DNA of 64,000 bases, taken from a virus. The notes under the pieces were generated by a model. That model was not told the DNA's origin. It saw only the letters and a list, made by a program, of their open reading frames with translations, and searched no databases. Position 1 is the stretch's first letter. Every line of letters starts with the position of its first letter. Location of the stretch: positions 29,126 to 93,125 of IMG/VR virus record IMGVR_UViG_3300013233_000246; one strand, 5' to 3'. Positions 3,937-57,823 of the stretch are shown one piece after another. The translations under genes and the position numbers were made by a program.

Positions 3937-4890
3937 ATGTCACAAATAGTACGAATAAAGAACAACACTATCATTGATAAAAAATGGGCGGGTCAGTCGG
4001 TGTTAGCTGGTACATATTATGATATACCAGAATCGGAAATATCGGCTTGGAAAGATGATGATATGGTATTCACCGCTATAGCGAATGGAGACGTTATTGT
4101 TAACAAAGGCTCGGATATAACGGATGACATATTAGACATAACAGAAGCATGGAAATGGATGCTTGGCGATACATTACCAATATCTTCACTTGGCAAACAA
4201 CTATCAGTTCATTCTTCTACTAAACCGGAAGTTAACGGAAAAGAATTTTTCTTACAATGGACCGGAGCTGGTGATGATGTAACTAATGGAATAATTGGGG
4301 AAGGAGAATTGCTTTCGTTTTCACTAACTCCCACCGATGCTTCAATAAGTAAAGAGATAAGATTTGATCCACAGTTTGGTGATACCTACATACATGAAGG
4401 ATATGCAAAGTGGTATCATGATTTGAATGTATCTAATGGTGCAGGAGATTATATGTCAGCCATGATAGTTTCGGATCCAACACAATTACAAACGGTTGCC
4501 AGTTTAGATTGTGTGATTGTAAATGATTGGGTTAAATATGCACCTGGTGGTGCGGGTACTGGTACACATGGTTTCGCCGCAACCCCCATATTAGTTCCTA
4601 GAGGATTTAGTAAAGATGGGGATTGGGATTATGATGGAACAAACCTCACACCAAATTTGTTAGGTACTGGTGGTTATAATATATCTAGTGTTGAGAGAAT
4701 TGTTCATAGATATATTAATAAAATACCTATGTGCTTTACTAGTAATTCATTCAACAGACTAACATCAGATGAAACAGCATACTTACCACCAGGATATTTT
4801 ATACGCGTAACAGCATTTAATGTATCTGCTTCCAATTGGAATTGTGCGTTTATGTTTGAAGTTTATAGGGAAAGAACAGCAGTACCATAA
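3937..4890 (+). CDS. hypothetical virion protein
   Basis: 317-aa ORF with GAGGA SD. Confidence 0.55.
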   Translation: MSQIVRIKNNTIIDKKWAGQSVLAGTYYDIPESEISAWKDDDMVFTAIANGDVIVNKGSDITDDILDITEAWKWMLGDTLPISSLGKQLSVHSSTKPEVNGKEFFLQWTGAGDDVTNGIIGEGELLSFSLTPTDASISKEIRFDPQFGDTYIHEGYAKWYHDLNVSNGAGDYMSAMIVSDPTQLQTVASLDCVIVNDWVKYAPGGAGTGTHGFAATPILVPRGFSKDGDWDYDGTNLTPNLLGTGGYNISSVERIVHRYINKIPMCFTSNSFNRLTSDETAYLPPGYFIRVTAFNVSASNWNCAFMFEVYRERTAVP

Positions 4891-4900
4891 GGAGAAATAT

Positions 4901-5323
4901 ATGTATAAATGTAAACATTTTATAATACAAGAACTAGTATCACCAGGAACTTTTCAAAAGCGTGGTGAAAAAGCATGGCAATTATTGGACGACGGGATGC
5001 TGATGACATTAGATCGTTTGCGCGACAAATATGGCAAAATGACCGTCAATAATTGGAAATGGGGTGGTGATCGTGAATGGTCGTGTCTACGAACAGCAGA
5101 TAGTCCATGGTTTAGCACATACAGCCAGCATTCTTTTGGTAGGGCAGCTGATATAATATTTGCTGATGTAACAGCAGAATCCGTACGGCAGGATATATTG
5201 GCAAATCCAGACGAATTTGCCTTTGAATTTATCAACAGTTTTGAAGAAAATACATCTTGGTTGCATTTTGACGTTAGAAATTGTGATAGAGTTCTTACAT
5301 ATCCAATACCTATGAAAAAATAG
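4901..5323 (+). CDS. peptidase M15A-like Zn peptidoglycan peptidase (endolysin candidate)
   Basis: LR..SQHSFGRAADI...WLHFD motif; AGGAG SD places the start at 4901. Confidence 0.8.
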   Translation: MYKCKHFIIQELVSPGTFQKRGEKAWQLLDDGMLMTLDRLRDKYGKMTVNNWKWGGDREWSCLRTADSPWFSTYSQHSFGRAADIIFADVTAESVRQDILANPDEFAFEFINSFEENTSWLHFDVRNCDRVLTYPIPMKK

Positions 5324-5377: not shown

Positions 5378-7933
5378 ATGATAGTAAACTTTCAACAAGG
5401 TATTGTAAGCCACCAAGATGGTGGATTTTTGCAGGTTAATGGGGCTGTTGTTGGCATATTGGCCACCAACCGTCCTACCACCATTACAGTAGCGCACAGG
5501 CAGACAAATTATACACATTCAGAAGATTTGGCGCTGCCTGCTGCATGGATTGGACCATTCACGGAAATCAATTATTGGCTGTACTGGGATTTTAACCCAT
5601 TAGATTTCACTAGGACTTTTGGTAAAACAAGCCTAGAACCTGTAGCACAATCCATACCACCTGGTTCTGGAAATACGGATATTTTTGATGTCGTTGATGG
5701 TGCCGCAGGTATTGGTAAATTTATTGTTGAAGGGAAATTCGTTCTACCCATCAATAAGCCATTTGCGGTTTTAAACTCTACGGGCAATAATGGTTCATAT
5801 ACTGTTTTGGGAACCATTTATGATGCAAATACTGGACGAACCACAATAACAGTAAATGAAACAGTTCCTGATCCCGTGGCTGACGGTGAAGTAACCTTAG
5901 ATATTGATTCTTCAGGCAATCCATTGTTTGTTGATGGACGCCATTGGTTTGATACGTCTACAAATAAGCATTATATTCTCAATGGAACGCTGTGGCAGGA
6001 AGTAATACGTGTATTTGCTGCACAATTAATTAATGGTGTAACTTTAATAAGCTTTAGTCAGAATTCTGCCCTTGGTGATTTCACGGGAACGCAAATAGGT
6101 AGTAACGTACAAGTCCCTTCTGGAAGGATTTTGTTTGGCGAAGCAAGCAATCCAATACGTAGAGATAATGGAACATTTTTCACAACAGAAGATCAGTTTT
6201 TCACAAATCAATCTCGCGTTGATGCGTTGCGTTTAGAATCTAATGTTACGCGGGCACAATCTATAGAAGGTACGATACTTTCCCAATTTAGCATTGTGGC
6301 GTGGACAAATGATGGTCAAGTAACATCTGCGCAATATGATGATACGGGAAATACCGTTCTTGGTATTCTCACAGAAACAATACAAAATTTAGAAGTTGGA
6401 GCAATAATAACACAAGGATCTGTTACCAATCCTGATTGGAATTGGACTGGTGGAATAGATCCTATTCCTGTTGGTAGTCAATTGTGGGTACAGAATGGAC
6501 AATTAGTAACATCAAATCCAAACTTGAGTGACCCAATAACATACCCTGTACCCCATGTGCCAGTAGCACGGGTGTTGGATAAAGATACTATTATTTTTGA
6601 ACAAGGTCTTGGAGGAGTTGGTCCACGAGGTCCAATAGGTAGTATTAGTAATTTACCAATTGCAGATACTACGGATGCGGGCGCTGTAACATTATTAACA
6701 CCTTCATCCAATTCATTGCGTGGCATTGTAATTAGTGATACAGATTTTAGGTTGACCAATGCTCGACAACCATTGTCACATTCACATCAAGCATCCGATA
6801 TAGGATTTATTCCTGGTAGTGGTATTATATCTTCCGATGTTCAGAATGGTATGTTGGAGTTGGGAGCTGGTAAATTGGATTTGATTGGTGGTACTATGAC
6901 AGGACCACTTACATTATTTGCTAATCCATCCAATCCATTAGAAGCTGCAAATAAACAATATGTAGATAATTTAGTATCTGGTCTTATTTGGTTAGAACCT
7001 GTAGATTTAATTGACATGGTTTCGGATGCAGTAACTACACCGCCAACAAGTCCACAGCTGGGAGAAGCATATATAATTCCGTCTGGTGCAACGGGTGCAT
7101 GGTCAGCAATAGCACAAGGAAACGTAACATCGTGGGATGGCACGGCATGGCAGGATTTGGGTGCAGTTTCTACTTTTGACGCTTCGCCAAGATTTGGTAT
7201 TGCATTTTTTGTTTCTGCGACTCCATCGGGTTCTTTTGCTGGTAGAAAAAATGATATAGTAACATATTCTGGTTCTACCTTAAGTGGGTTTGAAACCCCA
7301 ATATCAAACAATGCCATATTTGTTCGTTCATCATTGTCTTCAAATGCGTTTAAACGATATGCGTTTAATGGAACTTCTTGGATATTGTTTAGTAGTGGTC
7401 AAAATTTAACAGCCGACGGAACTACAATAGAATTCAATACTAATGTGGTGAGTGTTAAGCCATTTGGCGCTGGCGGTACTGTTGATGCAGAATTGTGGCA
7501 AGGGTTACAACCAACGGATCTTGCTACAGTATATGCCCCTATTGTACATACACACACAATACCATATGATTTTGGTTTCTTTATAACAGGTCCCATACAA
7601 CCGAGCGTTCTTGTCGGTTCATTTATGGTTACAAGACCAATATCGGTTAAGTCACCAGCCGCTGAAAGTATAGCATATGCTAAAGTTGCTTCTACGGCTT
7701 CTTACACACTTGATATAGTACATGAAATACCAACTGTTAGTACAACAACCGTTGGTACAATTAATTTTCAAGCAGGTATTAATTATGGTATAATAACATG
7801 GGGATTTGATACTTCATTCTCCGCAGGTGATTTATTGCAAATAGCAACTCCATCGGGTACACCAGACAGTACTTTAGGAGAAATAACAATCACAATAGTT
7901 GGTTGTGCGTTGGCTTCAACCTGTACATTATAA
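5378..7933 (+). CDS. tail fibre/baseplate-associated protein
   Basis: GGTMTGPL..AANKQYVD fibre motif; DUF2793-like TPP..GEAYII...GAW segment; N-terminus paralogous to the 12553 protein. Confidence 0.7.
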   Translation: MIVNFQQGIVSHQDGGFLQVNGAVVGILATNRPTTITVAHRQTNYTHSEDLALPAAWIGPFTEINYWLYWDFNPLDFTRTFGKTSLEPVAQSIPPGSGNTDIFDVVDGAAGIGKFIVEGKFVLPINKPFAVLNSTGNNGSYTVLGTIYDANTGRTTITVNETVPDPVADGEVTLDIDSSGNPLFVDGRHWFDTSTNKHYILNGTLWQEVIRVFAAQLINGVTLISFSQNSALGDFTGTQIGSNVQVPSGRILFGEASNPIRRDNGTFFTTEDQFFTNQSRVDALRLESNVTRAQSIEGTILSQFSIVAWTNDGQVTSAQYDDTGNTVLGILTETIQNLEVGAIITQGSVTNPDWNWTGGIDPIPVGSQLWVQNGQLVTSNPNLSDPITYPVPHVPVARVLDKDTIIFEQGLGGVGPRGPIGSISNLPIADTTDAGAVTLLTPSSNSLRGIVISDTDFRLTNARQPLSHSHQASDIGFIPGSGIISSDVQNGMLELGAGKLDLIGGTMTGPLTLFANPSNPLEAANKQYVDNLVSGLIWLEPVDLIDMVSDAVTTPPTSPQLGEAYIIPSGATGAWSAIAQGNVTSWDGTAWQDLGAVSTFDASPRFGIAFFVSATPSGSFAGRKNDIVTYSGSTLSGFETPISNNAIFVRSSLSSNAFKRYAFNGTSWILFSSGQNLTADGTTIEFNTNVVSVKPFGAGGTVDAELWQGLQPTDLATVYAPIVHTHTIPYDFGFFITGPIQPSVLVGSFMVTRPISVKSPAAESIAYAKVASTASYTLDIVHEIPTVSTTTVGTINFQAGINYGIITWGFDTSFSAGDLLQIATPSGTPDSTLGEITITIVGCALASTCTL

Positions 7934-26630: not shown

Positions 26631-27499
26631 GATTTGTTGTGTTGGGTTTTTATAATTTGCCAACCTTTCCATTTCCCCCGCTGAAGTTTTTTACCATGTC
26701 TTTGTGCCCTTAGAAATGTATCAAATGGTGCTTTTAACTCAGCACAGACATCTCTCAGATATCCATTACCAACAAGTTCATTTTCAGGATTAAATACTTT
26801 ACAAAATACTGCTAATGGATTTTTTGCACCAACATTTCTGCTCATTTCCTGCCATGTCTTTTTTCTTTTTTTCATTAATGTGGGGTCTTGAAATGGATGC
26901 TTTCTTTGTTTAAATAAATCTCGTAAATTTTGTTTATGTGCTTCGGTATGAATATGTCCACCAGTTCTAGTTATCCCAGACCTCTTCATTGCTTCTTTGG
27001 ATGGTCTTGGTGGTCTGGTATTGTTTTTAATTGCCAGTTGTCTAAAATATTCGCGTAATTCTGGATGATTTTTATATCTTAGATTCATCCCATCACTTAT
27101 TTTCTTTTTGTGTTCTTCAGATAATGTTTTCCCTGTTCTTTGTGCAGACCACATCAATCTAGTTTTTTCGCAAGGAATCCATCCATAATTACCTTCACCA
27201 CCTTTTGTTAGATTGTATCCACTTTCAGTGATATGCGTGTTGTATTCTTCGATAAAATAATTCTCCATAATATTTAAAGTATGTGCTGCATCCATTGAAC
27301 AATAAATTACTTCAAAACTAAAATTTTCAATACCATATTTTCGTAAAGCTCTGTATATAGGTCTATGTTTTGTTTCTGTAGAATGGATATCTACTATATG
27401 TTTCTCCCAGCGTTTTTCTGGAGGGTTTTGGGATGTATATCCCACATATTGTTTGTTGTTAACCCTATTGACAATTCGGTAAATATAGTGTATAATCAT
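26627..27499 (-). mobile_element. GIY-YIG homing endonuclease (Seg-like)
   Basis: YIYRIVNRVNNKQYVG, RW..H, KYG.ENF, E..FI, GYN.T.GG, NUMOD3-like tail. Confidence 0.88.
27468..27496 (+). promoter_or_regulatory. consensus sigma70 promoter for the RNA ligase gene
   Basis: TTGACA-17-TATAAT. Confidence 0.8.
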
Positions 27500-27538
27500 G
27501 GTACTTTCACTATTAATCGTATCGTTATTACTTTATTT

Positions 27539-28693
27539 ATGAATATTACAACAAACGACTACCAAAAAACCTTATATAGCAATTTGATGAATCTTGTTGA
27601 AGGAAATGAAGCGTTCTTCTTTAATGATTGGGAATTGGGTGGTAATTGGTACAGAAACTTCAATTATTGCTTGGCTTCATATACAGATTTCTGCGCTACG
27701 GACGCGCTAGAATGTCGTGGTATTATGTTTGAAATATCCGAAGGGGGGGGAAATGCTACAATGGTTCGTTTGGCATCTATTGGATTTCCGAAGTTTTTCA
27801 ATGCAGGCGAGAACCCATTTACCATGGATATAGATTTGTCCACTGTAGTTGAACTCGCAGATAAAGCAGATGGAAGTCTCATAACCACTTATATGGACGA
27901 TGGTGTTCTACGAGTTAAGACAAAAGGTTCATTGACTTCCGACCAAGCAATAAATGCTAACGCATTTCTTCGTCTTGATGAAAACGCACAGTTCCGTGCC
28001 GAATTAATTAAAGGCGAACAATTGGGATTTACTATTATTTGTGAATGGGTATCGAGCGCTCATCGCATAGTACTCCCATATTTTAAGCCAGAACTGCGGG
28101 TTCTTGGTGTGCGTTCTCGAGAAGATGGGTCGTTTATTCATTTTGATGATATAGATTGCGAACATTTCCCTGAAACGTTGGATCGTTGGACTAAGATAAT
28201 TGAAACTGATGATACGGAAGCATATATTAAATCTGTTTCTGATATGCAACACATAGAAGGTGTGGTAGCTCGCTTACCATCAGGTCAATATTTCAAAGTT
28301 AAAAGTTTGTGGTATCTCGCTCTCCATCGTACCAAAGATTCTATCACCATCCCACGTCGTTTATTTGAATGTGTGCTGGAAGAAGCATCCGACGACTTAC
28401 GTACATTGTTCCATGATGATGAACTTGCTATCAAGATGATCGAAGACATGGAAGCATTTGTTGAACAGAAGTACAATCACATGGTTGATTCTGTTGAACG
28501 TTTCTATGAACGCAACAAGCATATGGAACGCAAAGAATTTGCTATCCTTGGTCAAGAAGAACTGAACCGTATGTACTTCGGGTTGGCTATGCAACGTTAT
28601 GTAGGTAAGGACGTTGACTATAAAACTTTCTTGAAAGGTAAATGGAAACAACTTGGACTCACGGATGAGAAAACTGATTTTGAAAACGAGTAA
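27539..28693 (+). CDS. rnl1: RNA ligase 1 (T4 Rnl1/gp63-like)
   Basis: ECRGIMF, KFFN..E, motif I KADGSL, KTKGS, EW, EGVV, KVKS.WY..H. Confidence 0.9.
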   Translation: MNITTNDYQKTLYSNLMNLVEGNEAFFFNDWELGGNWYRNFNYCLASYTDFCATDALECRGIMFEISEGGGNATMVRLASIGFPKFFNAGENPFTMDIDLSTVVELADKADGSLITTYMDDGVLRVKTKGSLTSDQAINANAFLRLDENAQFRAELIKGEQLGFTIICEWVSSAHRIVLPYFKPELRVLGVRSREDGSFIHFDDIDCEHFPETLDRWTKIIETDDTEAYIKSVSDMQHIEGVVARLPSGQYFKVKSLWYLALHRTKDSITIPRRLFECVLEEASDDLRTLFHDDELAIKMIEDMEAFVEQKYNHMVDSVERFYERNKHMERKEFAILGQEELNRMYFGLAMQRYVGKDVDYKTFLKGKWKQLGLTDEKTDFENE

Positions 28694-28990: not shown

Positions 28991-29139
28991 TTTAATATGA
29001 ATATGAAAGTAAAACTGCGTGCAGCAGATGAAACAATAATCGAATTGAAGCGTTCAAGACTAATGTGGAAAAACCTTGCAATTATTTTTGGTTGTGGTAT
29101 AATCGCATTATCAGTAGTATTTTTTGGTAGGTATACATC

Positions 29140-40453: not shown

Positions 40454-41362
40454 ATGATAAAGAAATATCATTACATTTATAAGACTACCAATATTTTGAA
40501 CAACAAATTTTATATTGGTATGCATTCAACCGATAATTTAGATGATGGTTATATTGGTTCGGGTACATTATTGCGGCGTTCAATAAAGAAATACGGAAGA
40601 GATAAGCATAAAAAGGAAATATTGGAATATTTGGATAGTAGGGAATCACTCCACATACGCGAAAAGGAGATAGTCAATGAAAAATTATTGAATGATGTAT
40701 TAAGTATGAACCTTGCTGTTGGTGGTCAGGGTGAAGGTAGTTGGCAAAAAATAAATCAAAATAGTGAATTACAACGCCAGAAAAATAAAAAGGGGCAAAT
40801 TAAACAAGAGTGGTTACGCAAAAACGACCCTGAATGGGTAAAGCACAAGTCGGAGAAAATTAGTGCTGGCAATAAACTAGCCTTTTTAGAGGGAAGAAAA
40901 GTTAACACATTACCAGATTGGACAGGCAAAAAACATACAGAAGAGTCAAAACGAAAAATGTCTGCATCTCAAAAAGGAAAACATGTTGGTGAAAAGAATT
41001 CACAATATGGCACTAAATGGTCGTGGATTCACAAAGATGGAATCGTTAGAAAAGTTAAATACGAAGATAGAGAATCATACTTAGAAAATGGTTGGAAAAA
41101 TGGCATAAAAGAAAAATGTGATATAATCAATACTTGTAAAAAATGTAATATTGAATTTAATGCTAAGAAAAAAACCACAAAATATTGCTCTTTGGCATGT
41201 AGAAATGCCGCAAACTCTAATGAAATAGTGGATAATTTTGAAAAGCTTGAGGAAGAATATATAGAACATGGTACTTTATGTAAGGCATTTAAAATCTGCG
41301 GAATAACTAGATCTAAATCAAGATATGATATATTTTATAAATTATTAAATAGTAAAATTTGA
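40454..41362 (+). mobile_element. GIY-YIG homing endonuclease
   Basis: YIYKTTN..NNKFYIGMHST...GYIGSG; GKKHTEESKRKMS. Confidence 0.88.
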
Positions 41363-43511: not shown

Positions 43512-44218
43512 ATGAATTACAATAACCACTATAACAAATTAATAACTCGTGCGAAATCACAAAATAGGAAAAAGGGTTATGGTGTGTATTATGAACAGCA
43601 CCACATATTACCTGAATGTATGGGTGGTACAAACAACCAAAATAATTTGGTGCTTCTTACATCAAGGGAACACTTTATAGCTCATATACTTCTTATAAAA
43701 ATGCACCCAAACCAACATGGTCTTATATATGCAGTTAATAAAATGTGTAGGTTTAACAAACATCAACGCAGATCAAAAAATAGAATGTATGGTTGGTTGA
43801 AGGAGAAATTTTCAAGAGAAGTTTCCCATAGGCAATCGGGAAATAATAATTCCCAATATGGAACGTGCTGGATATTTAATGAAGAATTAGAAATATCCAA
43901 GAAAGTGGTGAAGCGTGAACTTGAAGAATATCTGATTGATGGATGGCAATCTGGTAGGGTTGTAGACTTTTTGAAATATAAAGAAAATATTTTAAAAAAG
44001 ATAAGATTGAAAAAGATAAAATGATTAAAAAAACTCTTAAACGTGAGTATTATATTGGGCTTTATAATGATTTTATGAAAAGTGATTGTACGTCAATTCG
44101 TGAATTTCAGCGCAATAACGACCTAAAAATACAAAGTTTGATAGATAATTGGAGAAAATATATTAAAGATTTTTCACCAAGAAGAAGTATAGAATATAAA
44201 AAAACATTGGAGCCATAG
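43512..44218 (+). mobile_element. HNH homing endonuclease (C-terminal part possibly frameshifted near 44010)
   Basis: YEQHHILPECMGG.N...NLV.LT.REHFIAH. Confidence 0.8.
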
Positions 44219-44512: not shown

Positions 44513-44631
44513 AGTAAAGTGGCGGAACTGGTATACGCTACAGCACGCCAAGTGTCTGTTTGTCAGATGATGTAATCTGGCTGCTAATAAGTGGGAAATC
44601 CATTGCAGGTTCGAGTCCTGTCTTTGCGCCA
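44513..44631 (+). ncRNA. tRNA-like RNA with branched domain replacing the anticodon arm
   Basis: D-arm gcggaactggtatacgc, T-arm gcagg-TTCGAGT-cctgt, GCCA end. Confidence 0.65.
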
Positions 44632-44703: not shown

Positions 44704-45222
44704 ATGGAATTTGCATTAGGAATGTTCGCAGGCTTGATCTTGTGGCCGTGGTGGGGATTGGGTATTTTCATATTATTGTGTATTGTCGATTCCGTTTTGG
44801 TCGAAAATGAAAATGCTTCATTTGGTACTGGCATGATGGTTGTAGGTACCGCAATGCTTGTTTGGTTGGCTGGTGATATGAACCCATTTGTCCTTGCATG
44901 GGACAATTTTGGTAATATACTTAAGTTTTTCGTTGTATATTTTGCTGTTGGTGGATTATGGTCAATTGCCAAATGGTATCTTTATCTTATTGGCGTGCGT
45001 GATGATATGCGCCAACGTGGTGAAAAGAAACGTCCATGTAGAACATATGCAAGAAACAATCAGGCAAGAATATACGCATGGATTGGTCATTGGCCGTTCA
45101 GTATGATTGGTTCTTTGTTTGGTGACTTCTTAGGTCGTATTGTTAAAATGATTTATCGTTCTTTGACAAACTTATATGACAGAATGGCGAATAACATATT
45201 TAAAGATTTTGAATCTGAATAA
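44704..45222 (+). CDS. multi-pass membrane protein
   Basis: Several hydrophobic helices; TTGCTT-17-TATAAT promoter upstream. Confidence 0.65.
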   Translation: MEFALGMFAGLILWPWWGLGIFILLCIVDSVLVENENASFGTGMMVVGTAMLVWLAGDMNPFVLAWDNFGNILKFFVVYFAVGGLWSIAKWYLYLIGVRDDMRQRGEKKRPCRTYARNNQARIYAWIGHWPFSMIGSLFGDFLGRIVKMIYRSLTNLYDRMANNIFKDFESE

Positions 45223-45282: not shown

Positions 45283-45355
45283 GCGGGTTTGGTGTTTAAT
45301 GGTAGCATGGGAGTTTTCCAAACTTTTGGTATGGGTTCGAATCCCGTAACCCGCT
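45283..45355 (+). tRNA. tRNA-Gly(TCC)
   Basis: Loop TTTCCAA; GCGGGTT/AACCCGC. Confidence 0.85.
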
Positions 45356-45404
45356 CAAAAAGACTTGACAAATAGGTTATGATGTGTTATAGTTGTACGC
45401 ATAT

Positions 45405-45554
45405 TCTCCGTGTAGCTCAGTTGATAGAGCGCTGCCGCTGAAGTTTCGAAACTTGGCAGAGGTCGTGTAGGAAGGTAAAGGCTTATTATTGTGTGGTGAT
45501 ATCCACATAACCGGTGCTAATACTAACCGATGGTTTGAGTCCCGCCACGGAGAC
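45405..45554 (+). ncRNA. tRNA-like RNA with ~60-nt insertion in the T-stem
   Basis: TCTCCGTG/CACGGAGA, canonical D-arm TAGCTCAGTTGATAGAGC; own sigma70 promoter 45365-45393. Confidence 0.65.
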
Positions 45555-45591
45555 TGAGGACGTTTTATTAATACTTCAAAGAGGAATAAAT

Positions 45592-46281
45592 ATGCCAAGA
45601 AAGCAAAAGAAATACCATTACATTTATAAAACTACCAATATATTAAATTATAAGTTTTATATTGGAATGCATTCAACTGATGACTTAGATGATGGGTATG
45701 TTGGTTCTGGTAAAAGACTTTGATATTCAATAAACAAACATGGAAAAGAAAATCACAAGACTGAAATATTAGAATATCTTCCAGATAGGGAATCACTCAG
45801 GAATAGAGAAGAAGAAATAGTCAATGATGAATTGTTAAATGAAGAGTTGTGTATGAATTTAATTGTTGGTGGTAATGAACATTGTGAGCAATTTAATACT
45901 CCAGAAGGCATTGAACGCCGCAGGGATTCAATTAATAAATGGATGAAATCAAAACAACAAGGCTGGCACAAAAAATATCATAACGACGAAGAATTTAGGA
46001 ATAATTGGAAATTGCATTTAAACAAAATGTTAGAGAAACGATTGGCAATGCCACGTTCCACATTTCAGACTTTTCTTGGAAAGCATCATACACAAGAAAC
46101 AAAAGATAAGATGTCTAAAGCAAAAAAGGGCATAGATAAGTATTGCGGTAAAAATCATTCACAATATGGTACTTGTTGGATTTATTCGCTACAACAGGTG
46201 AAAAGCATCAAGATTAAAAATAACCAATTGAATGAATATATTAATAATGGTTGGATTAAAGGCAGAAAGATGAAATTTTAA
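45592..46281 (+). pseudogene. GIY-YIG homing endonuclease with in-frame TGA (45721-45723)
   Basis: GSGKRL*YSINKHGKENH; paralogue of the 40454 gene. Confidence 0.85.
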
Positions 46282-46328
46282 TATTTTGTTGACAAATGGG
46301 TTACGTTGTGTTATAGTTTATCTTAACA

Positions 46329-46480
46329 AAGAGTGCTTACGGTGTGTGGCTGAAGCCACTGCAACGTGTAGGAAGGTAGTAATAGGGCAGACGTGTCTTA
46401 TCATTTATTATCATGCAGCCTTGCTTGTGAGTTGATTGCCCCACAAGGGAAAACATTAACCGCACACCGCAAGCACTCTT
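46329..46480 (+). ncRNA. structured ncRNA of unknown family
   Basis: Long closing stem aagagtgcttacggtgtg/cacaccgcaagcactctt; sigma70 promoter 46289-46317. Confidence 0.65.
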
Positions 46481-46501: not shown

Positions 46502-46915
46502 ATGAAATTCACATAGAACGAAAAGCTTGGTTTAAAAGAAGATCCTTATCTGACCCGTTGGGTTATTGATTTAGGATTCATATCATTTAGGTTACATCAT
46601 TGGAAACACTCTGATGATTTGCGCCATCCACATGACCATCCTTGGTCGTTCATCACATTTATCCTTTGGGGTAAATATGAAGATGTTTCACCAGCAGGAA
46701 ACGACATCTGTTCTACTGGTAGTATAAAATTTAGAAAAGCGGAACACCAACATAGTGTCAAGGTATTGACTAAACATTGTTGGACGTTACTCATCACTGG
46801 TCCAGAACGAAGACTTTGGGGTTTTTGGGTAAACGGTAAGTTTCGCAAACGCAATAAATACTTTTACGAATATGGACATCATCTTCCAGATGGTACCAGT
46901 AAACGAAGAGATTAA
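46502..46915 (+). pseudogene. cupin-like protein with in-frame TAG at codon 5
   Basis: AGGA SD; MKFT*NEKLG..PYLTRW..RLHH..SDDLRHPHDHPW. Confidence 0.7.
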
Positions 46916-50678: not shown

Positions 50679-50718
50679 ATTTGATTGACTTTTTGTTATA
50701 AATGGCGTATAATGCCAT

Positions 50719-51232
50719 ATGTCTTATAATATCCCACAATTTGATAAATTATTGTCACGAAATGATTTCCGCGAAGCAGTTTTCGAGCGCGATAATCAAT
50801 TGGGTTAAAAATTTCTGGTCAAACTTTAATTTTGAAATTCCAAAAGACTGGCGTGTTTGTGGTGAAAATGTGTTTGCCGAACATTCTATCAAATACAATG
50901 AACTGGATTCTTACTTCTATGGATTTTCTATCTGGAATGATAAGAATGAATGTTTGTCTTGGGATGATACATTGGAATGGTTTAGTATTCTTCACCCCGA
51001 TATGAAGACTGTACCAGTTCTATATGACGGAATATTTGATGTTGATATTATCCAAGATTTGTGGGATGATTCAATGTACGATGAACACGAAGGCTATGTA
51101 CTTCGTTTGGCTGATAGTTTTCCAATGAGTAATTTTAGAACTTCCGCTGGAAAATTTGTCAGAAAGAATCATGTCAATACAGTCAAGCATTGGATGCATG
51201 GAAGACGAATGGTGGTTAACAAATTAAAATAG
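50719..51232 (+). pseudogene. ATP-dependent RNA ligase, N-terminal part deleted
   Basis: CGEN..AEHSI.Y, FYGFSIW, VPVLY.G, EGYVLR, KFVRKNHV present; motif I KxDG absent. Confidence 0.7.
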
Positions 51233-51591: not shown

Positions 51592-52383
51592 ATGAATTAT
51601 AAAAAACAATACGAATTGTTGATATCCACAAGACTTAAATTGCATCAAGAAAGAATCTACAATAAAAAACAAGGCGCATATTACGAAAAACACCACATTC
51701 TTCCCAAATGTATTGGTGGTGATAATAGCCCAACCAATTTATTATTACTAACTTCTCGTGAACATTTTATTGCACATTTGTTGTTGTGGAAAATACATGG
51801 TGGTAAATTATTCTATGCTATTTGGCTAATGATGCAACGCAACACCTCCTGTTGTAAAGATGTAACGATAACCAGTAGAAGATTTGCATATCTCCGCGAG
51901 GAACAAAAAAGATTGAATCGTAAAACTGGTAAAGATCATTGGAATTATGGAAAGCATCATACTATTAAATCTAAGCAAAAAATGCGTGAAGCTAAACTTG
52001 GAAAACCCAGTTCAAGAAAAGGCATAAGGTTAACAGAAAAAACGAAGGAAAAAATAAGAATAGCAAATGTAAATAAGAAGTTATCTGCTGCTCATAAGCA
52101 AAATATTTCAAATGCACTCAGGGTAAGTAAGCATCCAATGATGACAAATACGCAGCCATTTCAACATATGAAAGTAAAATCAAATAAAAATCTCCAAATG
52201 AAATGGATGAATGCCATGGAAATATACGATGTGTGGATAAATAACAATAAGCCAGGATATGTTAATATGCAAAAAATAACTAAAATATCTTCACTCAGAG
52301 CCATGATAAAGTGGTTTGATAAGTGGGGCAATCCTTCAAAAAATGATACGTGGATAGACTGGCGCAAAAATCACACACAATAA
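51592..52383 (+). mobile_element. HNH homing endonuclease with NUMOD3-like repeats
   Basis: YEKHHILPKCIGG.N...NL..LT.REHFIAH. Confidence 0.85.
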
Positions 52384-52397
52384 GGAGAAAAAATGAA

Positions 52398-53432
52398 ATG
52401 AAAAGGAAAGCATTAATTTGTGGTATAAATTATCCAGGAACATCATACCCACTTAAAGGTTGTGTTAATGATGTAAATCTTATTGCAGATATGTTAACAA
52501 ATAATTTTGGATTTACTGATGCAAAAAATCGTAGGATGTTGACTGACGCTTCTGCAACAGCCGCTGCCATAAGAGAAAGACTTGAATGGTTGGTGGCAGA
52601 TGCACAACCTGGTGATATTCTTTGGTTTTCTTATTCTGGTCATGGTTCACAATTAATAAATCAAAAATATGATGATGCTGACTTTGAACCAGACAATAAA
52701 GATGAGATAATTTGTCCAATTGATTTGAATTGGCGAGATAAAATTATTCGCGATGATGAACTAAAAAGAATTTTTGACAAGGTCCCCAATGGCGTTAATC
52801 TTACAGTTTTGTTGGATTGTTGTAATTCTGGATCTGGTCTTGATCAACTTAACCAATATCAATCACTAGGACTGGGCGAAACCCGCGCATTAAAACAACC
52901 GAATTCAATAGTAGAAGGTTCGCGATGGTTGCCTATGCCAGATGATATTGCTAATCGTGGTAGAGGATTAGATTTGTCAATCCGTCCACGTTCAGTACAA
53001 TCAAGAAATGTTAATAATACTGGATTGTTGATTAGTGGTTGCCAAGCGCAACAGACCAGTGCCGACGCATGGATTGGCGGAAAATATATGGGGGCTGCTA
53101 CATATCATCTTGTTGACGCGCTTAAAAATTCTAACTATGATATGAGTTATAAAGATTTAATTGATACTATGAATAAATCTATGGTAACAAAAGGATTTTC
53201 ACAACGACCACAACTCGATGGTTCTGCTGATTTATTCCAAGCAAAATTCCTTGAACCGCTTCTTATTGGTACTGGATTGGAAGAACCAGTTACGGCACCA
53301 GTTGTAGTACCACCTGATGTTGAACTTACTTCTGAAGTTAAAGAACCAGAACCTAAAAAGAATTGGATGAAGATAGCAGCCATCACAGCAGGTTCAATAG
53401 CTATTGGTGTAGTCATATTCCTTTCTTTATAA
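52398..53432 (+). CDS. caspase-family (C14 metacaspase-like) protease with C-terminal TM helix
   Basis: ALICGINY, LKGCVND, YSGHG, DCCNSG, SGC..QTSADA. Confidence 0.9.
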   Translation: MKRKALICGINYPGTSYPLKGCVNDVNLIADMLTNNFGFTDAKNRRMLTDASATAAAIRERLEWLVADAQPGDILWFSYSGHGSQLINQKYDDADFEPDNKDEIICPIDLNWRDKIIRDDELKRIFDKVPNGVNLTVLLDCCNSGSGLDQLNQYQSLGLGETRALKQPNSIVEGSRWLPMPDDIANRGRGLDLSIRPRSVQSRNVNNTGLLISGCQAQQTSADAWIGGKYMGAATYHLVDALKNSNYDMSYKDLIDTMNKSMVTKGFSQRPQLDGSADLFQAKFLEPLLIGTGLEEPVTAPVVVPPDVELTSEVKEPEPKKNWMKIAAITAGSIAIGVVIFLSL

Positions 53433-57100: not shown

Positions 57101-57823
57101 ATGTGTAAAATTGATTGGAATGATAAAGAAAAAATTGAGATGGCAGTAAAAACATCTTATAGTTATGCAGAAACATTGAGATTTCTTGGTATTTCACATA
57201 GGGGCGGTAACAATAAAACATTAAAGAAATATATCAAAAAATTTAATATTTCAATAACACATTTCAATCCAAATTATTATAAAATATCCCACATGGGGGA
57301 AGATTCCACTATTCCACTGTATGAAATTTTGGATGGGAAGCATCCACAGTATCAAACTACTAAATTAAAATCCCGACTATTGAAAGAGGGATTAGTTGAA
57401 AATATATGCGACGAATGTGGACAGTGTGATACGTGGAATGATAAACCATTGGTTATACAACTTGACCATATTGATGGTAATAGTATGAATCACAAAAAGG
57501 ATAACTTGCAGATGCTATGCCCAAATTGTCATACACAAACTACTACGTATGCTGGAAGGAAAAACCAAACCAAGGTTAAAAAATATAAGGATAGGGATGA
57601 TTATATGGCAACAAGAAAGGAAAATTATATCATTTCGCAGCAAAAGTATGTGCATGACGTATTGACATCTGGTATTAATTTTGATAGTATTGGTTGGGTA
57701 GCAAAAGTTGCACAAATTATAAATCAAAAACCACAAAAGGTTGGAAATTGGATGAACACCATGATGCCAGAATTTTATAAAAATTGTTATAAGAGGAAAT
57801 ATATATGCAAGCACCACTTATAA
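57101..57823 (+). mobile_element. HNH homing endonuclease
   Basis: C..CG..W....QLDHIDG...NL..LCPNCH. Confidence 0.85.

Follow-up and report, generated by a model that had tools for sequence, protein, structure and literature searches.

A 64,000-nucleotide (nt) stretch of viral DNA, here called the window (IMG/VR record IMGVR_UViG_3300013233_000246, positions 29,126 to 93,125), carries two structured RNAs, RNA1 and RNA2, within the transfer RNA (tRNA) region of a large T4-like phage. RNA1 has the body of a tRNA, with its T-stem split by a 64-nt insert and an unrelated element standing in place of its anticodon loop. RNA2 lies downstream, and a SegB-like homing endonuclease gene sits between the two. 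We consider it probable that the locus is a small operon of phage stable RNAs, that RNA1 is a non-decoding tRNA mimic or scaffold, and that the SegB-type gene was inserted into the operon; this is the best explanation of the locus as a whole. An initial annotation of the window had proposed two real, promoter-driven noncoding RNAs at this site, and the comparisons described below support that proposal.

The window is part of a 93-kilobase (kb) IMG/VR virus contig whose completeness is estimated at about 27%. Among the products that it encodes are a T4 RnlA-type RNA ligase, a paralogue of the gp23-type head protein, a DnaB-type helicase and several homing endonucleases, and ARAGORN called 25 tRNA genes. 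Because an RnlA-type ligase and a gp23-type head protein are encoded, we identify the source, by its gene content, as a large T4-like phage known from metagenomes alone. Syntenic loci were recovered by metagenome scans (including JGI) that used the 172-amino-acid protein encoded just upstream, and only some of the related loci were retrieved. Identity of this flanking protein across contigs is only 60-82%, contig L068 being the closest at 82%. The sample comprises six RNA1 sequences (this window, L068, L073, L091, L072 and L075) and two RNA2 sequences (this window and L068). In all six contigs RNA1 lies 3' of tRNA-Gly(UCC) and of the same promoter. RNA1 is evidently conserved well beyond this genome; as sampled, the family forms a small clade, its six contigs coming from environmental metagenomes.

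RNA1 matches the Rfam tRNA family (RF00005) end to end at 23.5 bits (E = 0.042), below the gathering threshold of 29 bits; in the alignment the "anticodon loop" is 18 nt long and the T-loop is preceded by a long insert. ARAGORN did not call RNA1 as a tRNA, whether introns were allowed or not. We take its parts from an anchor-based dissection of the six copies (Table 1). The acceptor stem has 7 base pairs (bp), and its pair 2 shows one compensatory and one wobble change among the copies. U8-A9, a 4-bp D-stem and a standard 5-nt variable loop (AGGUC) are kept, and the 5-bp basal anticodon stem carries compensatory changes at three positions. The 19:56 elbow pair between the D-loop and the T-loop co-varies: it is A-U in the window and L068, G-C in L091, U-A in L073 and G.U in L072 and L075. 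When the core structure was laid over a five-row alignment (A4), 100% of cells were paired and four pairs changed on both sides; sliding the partners by 1 to 3 columns as a control left 39-52% of cells paired. The RNA1 genes of all five relatives encode an ACCA 3' end. Since the core tRNA parts are kept and the elbow pair co-varies, RNA1 should fold into the L-shape of a tRNA. At the level of comparative sequence, this anatomy, its conservation and its covariation establish that RNA1 descends from a class-I tRNA. None of the window's tRNAs is clearly its parent. Two copies carry a further D-loop hairpin of 30-39 nt (L072, about 994-1040; L075, about 6100-6138). In L075 the loop of this hairpin, CGUUAAAAC, resembles the GUUAA(A)C loops found on the anticodon arms of other homologues.

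Where does the insert enter the tRNA body? The 3' half of RNA1 reads GYG (ACG in L091), an insert of 64-67 nt, GG, a 7-nt T-loop, CCCGC (CCCGU in L091), the acceptor strand and A73. If GYG and GG together form the 5' strand of a split T-stem facing CCCGY, 5 of 5 pairs are canonical in all six copies; a contiguous T-stem leaves two mismatches in each. In L091 a G-C pair of the split stem has become A-U, a compensatory double change. The initial annotation had placed its "core" in a T-stem insertion, and it was right to do so because the split model pairs fully in every copy and the contiguous model mismatches twice; the insertion point lies between positions 51 and 52. We had also considered a variable arm in which GGUC pairs with GACC. 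We abandoned it, since AGGUC is the usual 5-nt variable loop and the L091 compensatory change is accounted for by the split T-stem.

The anticodon region of the window's RNA1 forms a perfect palindromic hairpin, AAGUUUCGAAACUU, much as had been claimed for it. At the same site the homologues carry unrelated elements of 15-21 nt, lacking a common register, on the conserved 5-bp stem; several relatives have GUUAAC or CUGAA loops. The six copies share no 7-nt anticodon loop carrying U33 and an anticodon in any common register. RNA1 therefore very probably does not decode.

The T-stem insert is 64-67 nt long across the six copies, and several of its sequence blocks are conserved. In the window it forms a rod: GG-AA-GGUA-AA-GGC, an internal loop, an 8-bp hairpin and GCU-AA-UACU-AA-CC. 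MAFFT misaligns the two insert subtypes, and for the insert we used per-sequence folds and anchor-based pair tables in place of RNAalifold. Folded alone, five of the six inserts adopt the rod as their minimum-energy structure; L091 differs. Among the six copies, five positions of the terminal hairpin show compensatory changes. The rod's inner helices are less secure because their changes are one-sided only, such as G.U in one and A-U in the other of the window and L073.

The two RNAs share short motifs, as the initial annotation had observed. A 14-mer, CGTGTAGGAAGGTA, occurs exactly at 45464 and 46365; GCTGAAG was located at 45437 and 46349; and the motif aaYaYtaaccg appears as aatactaaccg at 45519 and as aacattaaccg at 46452. 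In RNA1 the 14-mer, CGUGUAGGAAGGUA (45464-45477), resolves into C, the last base of the variable loop, GUG, T-stem positions 49-51, and UAGGAAGGUA, the 5' strand of the rod. The downstream motif aaUACUAACCg (45519-45529) is the 3' strand of the same rod. Core and downstream motif are thus most likely partners in RNA1, forming the two strands of the rod in the folded models.

RNA2 is organized differently. It folds with a closing stem of 16-18 bp (z = -4.3; 0 of 200 shuffles folded as well), in agreement with the long closing stem first described for it. With nhmmer a homologue was found only in L068, and RNAalifold gave 49 pairs for the two sequences, 5 of them compensatory. The alignment model contains a closing stem (15 pairs, one bulge) that can be extended, a hairpin B with four compensatory pairs, a small CCC/GGG hairpin, and a stem C in which the aacauuaaccg motif pairs with an invariant block, GUGAGUUGAU. 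A 28-nt segment is invariant between the window and L068. The model, which with two sequences draws on little covariation, places the 14-mer in an unpaired linker, and the core and the downstream motif do not pair with each other. The motifs thus hold different structural roles in the two RNAs, because the 14-mer is predicted to be unpaired in RNA2 and most likely lies within the rod in RNA1, and the idea of a shared structural module did not survive the comparison.

Is the core itself conserved? RNA1 is, and that part of the question is answered in favor of conservation; the 14-mer identity is restricted to this genome. Against the relatives' copies, the RNA1/RNA2 identity shrinks from 14 nt to 8-10 nt: RNA2 of L068 reads CGUGUAGGGAUU, RNA1 of L068 reads CGCGUUUGGAAG and RNA1 of L073 reads CGUGUAGGAAAG. 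For two RNAs of 150 nt, a match of 8 nt is not significant. A similar word in RNA-C, a tRNA-like RNA of the relatives (below), ACGUGYUAGGUAAGG, forms the 3' strand of an extended D-arm helix, which is yet another context. From these alignments we read the 14-mer as genome-specific, the product of either a chance extension or a short conversion tract, on purine-rich strands that belong to unrelated helices.

The claim of near-identical promoters held: the 30-nt pattern occurs exactly twice, at P1 and P2 (Table 1), and in 0 of 100 shuffles. Both copies have the form TTGACA-17-TATAGT with a TG extension and match the consensus at 11 of 12 positions. TTGACAAATAGGTTAC is kept upstream of RNA1 in L068, L073, L075 and L091. 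In L068 there is no promoter between RNA1 and RNA2; the order there is promoter, RNA1, CCA, AUUUUUU and RNA2 (4657-4806), and the GIY-YIG gene is absent. In L073, L075, L091 and L072 the place of RNA2 after RNA1 is taken by other oversized tRNA-like RNAs: RNA-C in L073, L075 and L091, and RNA-B in L072, L075 and L091 (the L072 contig ends inside RNA-B). These layouts therefore indicate an ancestral unit in which one promoter drives a string of structured RNAs. Judged by synteny, the ancestral layout ran from a strong sigma-70-type promoter to RNA1 and on to another structured RNA, in this lineage RNA2.

RNA-C (L073 6091-6247, L091 6096-6250, L075 6465-6612) is a tRNA-like RNA of about 150 nt; it comes directly after RNA1 in L073 and after RNA-B in the other two contigs, L075 and L091. 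Its loop is of the Lys type (CUCUUAA or CUCUUGA), its D-arm is lengthened by a 9-bp rod, and its T-stem is interrupted between GGG and GG by an inserted hairpin. RNA-B (L091 5908-6090, L072 1176-1359, L075 6278-6459) is about 185 nt long and does not occur in this genome; its acceptor, T-arm and CCA are normal, and it contains a large internal domain.

The gene between RNA1 and RNA2 had been described as a disrupted GIY-YIG gene, and it is: one reading frame is interrupted by a single in-frame TGA at 45721-45723 (codon 44). Its product is a full-length homologue of T4 SegB (38% identity across 227 residues, E = 2e-45) and contains a NUMOD3 motif (27.2 bits), and blastn detects DNA similarity to segB of T4-type phages. 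The TGA aligns with a Lys in T4 SegB and is therefore not a conserved Trp codon. Because of this in-frame TGA, the gene is probably inactive. Like T4 segB, it lies between RNA genes of a tRNA cluster; unlike T4 segB, it carries a TGA and is accompanied by a duplicated promoter.

The gene is absent from the syntenic L068 locus, and comparison with that locus delimits the insertion. Similarity to L068 stops right after ...CACGGAGAC and resumes at AAAGAGTGCTTACGG, the 5' end of RNA2. The encoded CCA is thus lost in this genome. The inserted segment terminates with a 27/30 copy of the operon promoter. We conclude from this alignment that a SegB-type gene landed just after RNA1 and removed its encoded CCA, and that the duplicated promoter would keep RNA2 transcribed. 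The two near-identical promoters thus trace to the insertion of a mobile element that would otherwise have separated RNA2 from its promoter.

Table 1. Features of the RNA locus (window coordinates unless a contig is named)
Feature	Position	Strand	Evidence or remark
172-amino-acid membrane protein, just upstream of the locus	44704-45222		has metagenome homologues, 27 further ones listed
tRNA-Gly(UCC), conserved upstream neighbor of the RNA operon	45283..45356	+	ARAGORN; Rfam tRNA 37.5 bits; also precedes RNA1 in L068, L072, L073, L075 and L091
Promoter P1, ancestral operon promoter	45365..45394	+	TTGACA, 17-nt spacer, TG-TATAGT
RNA1, tRNA-shaped RNA	45406..45553	+	Rfam tRNA 23.5 bits; six-homologue helix tables
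RNA1 acceptor stem	45406-12 with 45546-52		A73 at 45553
RNA1 D-arm	45415-30		
RNA1 basal anticodon stem	45432-36 with 45455-59		
RNA1 18-nt element in place of anticodon loop	45437..45454	+	contains GCTGAAG and palindromic hairpin AAGTTTCGAAACTT (45441-45454)
RNA1 variable loop	45460-64		AGGUC
RNA1 split T-stem	45465-67 + 45532-33, pairing with 45541-45		
RNA1 insert between T-stem positions 51 and 52	45468..45531	+	64 nt, rod-like irregular hairpin
RNA1 T-loop	45534-40		
SegB-like GIY-YIG homing endonuclease gene	45592..46281	+	38% identity to T4 SegB; NUMOD3
Promoter P2, now driving RNA2	46289..46318	+	27/30 copy of P1
RNA2, structured RNA	46329..46480	+	closing stem 46329-44 with 46465-80
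RNA2 hairpin A	46346-59		GYGGC-UGAA-GCCRY
RNA2 core 14-mer	46365-78		predicted single-stranded
RNA2 hairpin B	46377-46410		
RNA2 stem C	46426-36 with 46455-64		U-rich tail after RNA2
RNA1 homologues in relatives	L068 4497-4649; L073 5936-6085; L091 5746-5897; L072 979-1170; L075 6085-6272		

Do these RNAs belong to a known family? No Rfam family fits them apart from the sub-threshold tRNA match: at permissive E-values nothing except tRNA was found on the window or the loci of six relatives. The exact 14-mer occurs in 64 IMG/VR stretches, all of them unrelated coding sequence. IMG/VR scans with 19-mers from the RNA2 invariant block and from the 3' end of the RNA1 T-arm and acceptor returned one relative only, and a degenerate T-arm/acceptor pattern returned only the known copies and ordinary tRNAs. 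When the locus was compared by megablast and blastn with 50,697 GenBank phage records, only segB matched. A covariance model of RNA1 (R1) gives family members 87-164 bits; run on five large phage records and 16 loci, it found no new members and scored ordinary tRNAs at 13-45 bits.

Among known RNAs, canonical elongator tRNAs (RF00005) share with RNA1 the acceptor, U8-A9, the D-arm, AGGUC, the T-loop, A73, the CCA (in the relatives) and the 19:56 pair. Unlike them, RNA1 scores below the threshold, has a T-stem split by 64 nt and lacks a 7-nt anticodon loop or a conserved anticodon. YrlA and other bacterial Y RNAs (RF02553) resemble it as tRNA-mimicking noncoding RNAs expected to meet tRNA-processing enzymes. 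However, the tRNA-like module of YrlA is closed at its acceptor end and its termini form the Ro-binding stem, whereas RNA1 has free acceptor ends and its termini form the acceptor stem; RNA1 scores 15.3 against the 69 bits required and is not a member of that family. Closest in setting are T4 RNAC (species 1) and RNAD (species 2), which are also small noncoding RNAs in a T4-type tRNA cluster beside segB. In T4, segB lies between tRNA genes, adjoining tRNA-Arg and the stable RNAs rnaD and rnaC, and RNAC ends in a tRNA-like T-arm and acceptor. The roles of RNAC and RNAD are still unknown (PMC3014915, PMC9697503). MAFFT showed no block of similarity between the RNA1 locus and T4 rnaC or rnaD, and, unlike these RNAs, RNA1 has a full tRNA core with D-arm and elbow, an extra domain inside the T-stem and its own promoter. 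On these alignments RNAC and RNAD are the nearest analogues in position and general type, and they are not homologues.

What might RNA1 do? We infer a processing route and a function from its anatomy. Because RNA1 keeps the parts of a tRNA body and its relatives encode CCA, it would be expected to mature through RNase P and the CCA-adding pathway. The T-stem insert and the altered anticodon arm would prevent normal use by EF-Tu and the ribosome, because the T-stem contact surface would be disrupted and there is no anticodon. Most likely, RNA1 would occupy a tRNA-recognizing factor as a non-decoding mimic or scaffold, with the rod as a docking surface. More speculatively, a conserved body with a quickly changing element on its anticodon arm would be well suited to baiting host nucleases directed at anticodons.

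Several points weigh against this reading. The encoded CCA is absent from this genome's copy of RNA1, and the overall folding energy of RNA1 is unexceptional (z = -1.8). With six RNA1 and two RNA2 sequences, the inner rod helices show little covariation, and only the terminal hairpin is well supported. Phe-like (CUGAA) or Leu-like (GUUAA) anticodon loops recur in some homologues, which leaves slight room for a decoding-related role. Every RNA1 copy is known from metagenome sequence alone, and a mimic or decoy function is conjectural.

Other explanations were weighed against that of a non-decoding mimic. An unlikely but more ambitious version would make the rod a dedicated docking domain that turns a processed, possibly chargeable tRNA body into an adaptor, for example a bait that disarms a tRNA-targeting defense nuclease; or the insert would be the first protein-spliced non-anticodon tRNA insertion in a bacterial virus.

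Could RNA2 act mainly in cis, as the terminator or 3' stabilizer of the operon or as a 5' leader controlling the next gene? A U-rich tail follows the closing stem in both copies, the relatives have the tRNA-like RNA-C and then a U-run at the same position, and an open reading frame begins 20-25 nt 3' of RNA2 in both genomes. However, some 150 nt with four or five internal helices and the invariant 28-nt segment go far beyond what a terminator needs, and the downstream gene differs between the window and L068. We regard a mainly cis-acting RNA2 as quite unlikely.

It is less likely still that RNA1 is a genuine tRNA with protein-spliced insertions in the T-stem, in some D-loops and in the anticodon arm, which phage RNA-repair enzymes would remove. 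Deleting the insert does restore a perfect 5-bp T-stem; the D-loop insert of L072 and L075 is absent from the other RNA1 copies; the phage encodes two RNA-ligase-type proteins; and some homologues have CUGAA or GUUAA loops. Against this, whichever splicing register is chosen, the copies are left with no 7-nt anticodon loop in common: in the window a closed palindromic hairpin occupies the region, and the loops vary in length and sequence. The length of the insert and several of its sequence blocks are conserved, as in a functional domain. Bacteria and the phages that infect them are not known to have a tRNA-splicing endonuclease, and the window open reading frames scanned included none. The small intron that the initial annotation had entertained is unlikely on the same grounds, as no homologue would gain a usable 7-nt anticodon loop from its removal and insert length and blocks are conserved.

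We think it highly improbable that the core mimics the L1 stalk of 23S rRNA, an interdigitated double T-loop, and so binds uL1 or grips tRNA elbows. The 23S sequence on which this idea was based is accurate: positions 2110-2131 of Escherichia coli 23S rRNA read GUGUAGGAUAGGUGGGAGGCUU, to be compared with GUGUAGGAAGGUAAAGGCUU in the RNA1 insert. With the L1 stalk (H76-H78) and other double T-loop modules (the RNase P S-domain, T-box stem I) RNA1 shares a purine-rich word, GUGUAGGA...AGG...GGCUU, followed by a hairpin, and the helix-GAA-GGC...GCU-GAA-helix arrangement of L073 resembles the L1 binding site on its mRNA. Nevertheless, the reading fails on similarity, on motif conservation, on the second T-loop and on H77 pairing. 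Smith-Waterman alignments of 11 RNAs (six RNA1, two RNA2, three RNA-C) with the whole of E. coli 23S rRNA scored 19-26 at best, shuffles having means of 20-21 and maxima of 26-34, and none of the best alignments fell at the L1 stalk (positions 2093-2196). GUGUAGGA is not conserved, being GCGUUUGGA in L068, GCGUUAGGA in L072 and ACGUAGAAA in L091 (variants UUUGGA, UAGAAA). Between H78 and H77 the stalk requires a 12-nt strand that bears the second T-loop; at that place the window has only AA (between GCU and UACU). The H77-like pairing GGU/ACC becomes AGU/ACC, with an A.C mismatch, in L073, where the rod pairing is intact (AGU/ACU); L075 lacks an ACC partner for it, and the only ACC in L091 is in a different register. 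In RNA2 the two motifs do not pair at all. Unlike the L1 stalk, then, RNA1 has no second T-loop strand, a variable word and chance-level similarity, and its helix order and covariation fit a simple rod.

Finally, that the RNAs are decaying tRNA pseudogenes and spacer, with the 14-mer a by-product of recombination around the homing-endonuclease insertion, is likewise extremely unlikely: the 14-nt identity is confined to this genome (8-10 nt with relatives' copies) and phage tRNA regions, with their several homing endonucleases, are hot spots of recombination, but every RNA1 core pair is kept with compensatory changes despite a flanking protein at 60-82% identity, the dedicated strong promoter is conserved, and RNA2 retains 49 pairs, 5 of them compensatory, and its invariant 28-nt block.

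The surroundings of the operon yielded further observations. The gene after RNA2 (46502-46915, plus strand) starts ATG AAA TTC ACA TAG AAC, with an in-frame TAG at 46514-46516 that is kept in three diverged phages (L068 near 5036-5050, L075 near 7107-7121). Database homologues of this gene start MKFTQNEKLG, with Gln at the TAG codon. ARAGORN found no CUA-anticodon tRNA in the 93-kb record and four tRNA-Gln genes in the window. The TAG may be read through as Gln at this specific site, or translation may re-initiate. Stop-codon reassignment was checked and set aside: only the TAG at 46514 and the SegB TGA interrupt plus-strand genes. In the locus of a distant relative, L089, a tRNA with a CUA (amber-reading) anticodon lies at 1000-1076, where ARAGORN labels it tRNA-Pyl.

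Genes of homing-endonuclease type (NUMOD3 or HNH-like) are scattered over the tRNA region, at 40454-41359, 43512-44021, 51592-52380 and 57101-57820. The T4 RnlA-type RNA ligase is encoded at 27365-28690 (+), a short RNA-ligase-domain protein at 50702-51229 (+), between tRNA-Leu and tRNA-Trp, and a caspase-domain (Peptidase_C14) protein at 52350-53429 (+). An oversized tRNA-like gene at 44513-44630 (+), directly after tRNA-Leu(UAG), is a tRNA-Gln(CTG) with a 29-nt intron according to ARAGORN with introns allowed. Its copy in L068 (3606-3721) scores 31.5 bits on Rfam tRNA and has the loop CUUAUAG, versus CUAAUAA in the window. On an unrelated phage contig, L101 (IMGVR_UViG_2627853778_000001, reverse strand, about 2085-2210), a tRNA-like gene has about 50 extra nt in its anticodon region; L097, a contig related to L101, has a normal-length version of it.

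What does this locus mean for T4-like phages? It is a clean natural example of a SegB-type homing endonuclease inserted between RNA genes, with a promoter duplication restoring expression. After about fifty years, no function is known for the RNAs of the T4 tRNA cluster, RNAC and RNAD. Uncultured T4-like phages maintain a far more elaborate relative of the RNAC/RNAD idea, on which structural selection is clear. RNA1 combines a complete tRNA fold with a conserved extra domain at an unusual site, the T-stem, which is where EF-Tu and other tRNA-handling proteins make contact. If the interpretation of RNA1 as a non-decoding mimic or scaffold is true, phage tRNA mimics could serve as decoys or adaptors where phage and host compete over translation and over defenses that target tRNA.

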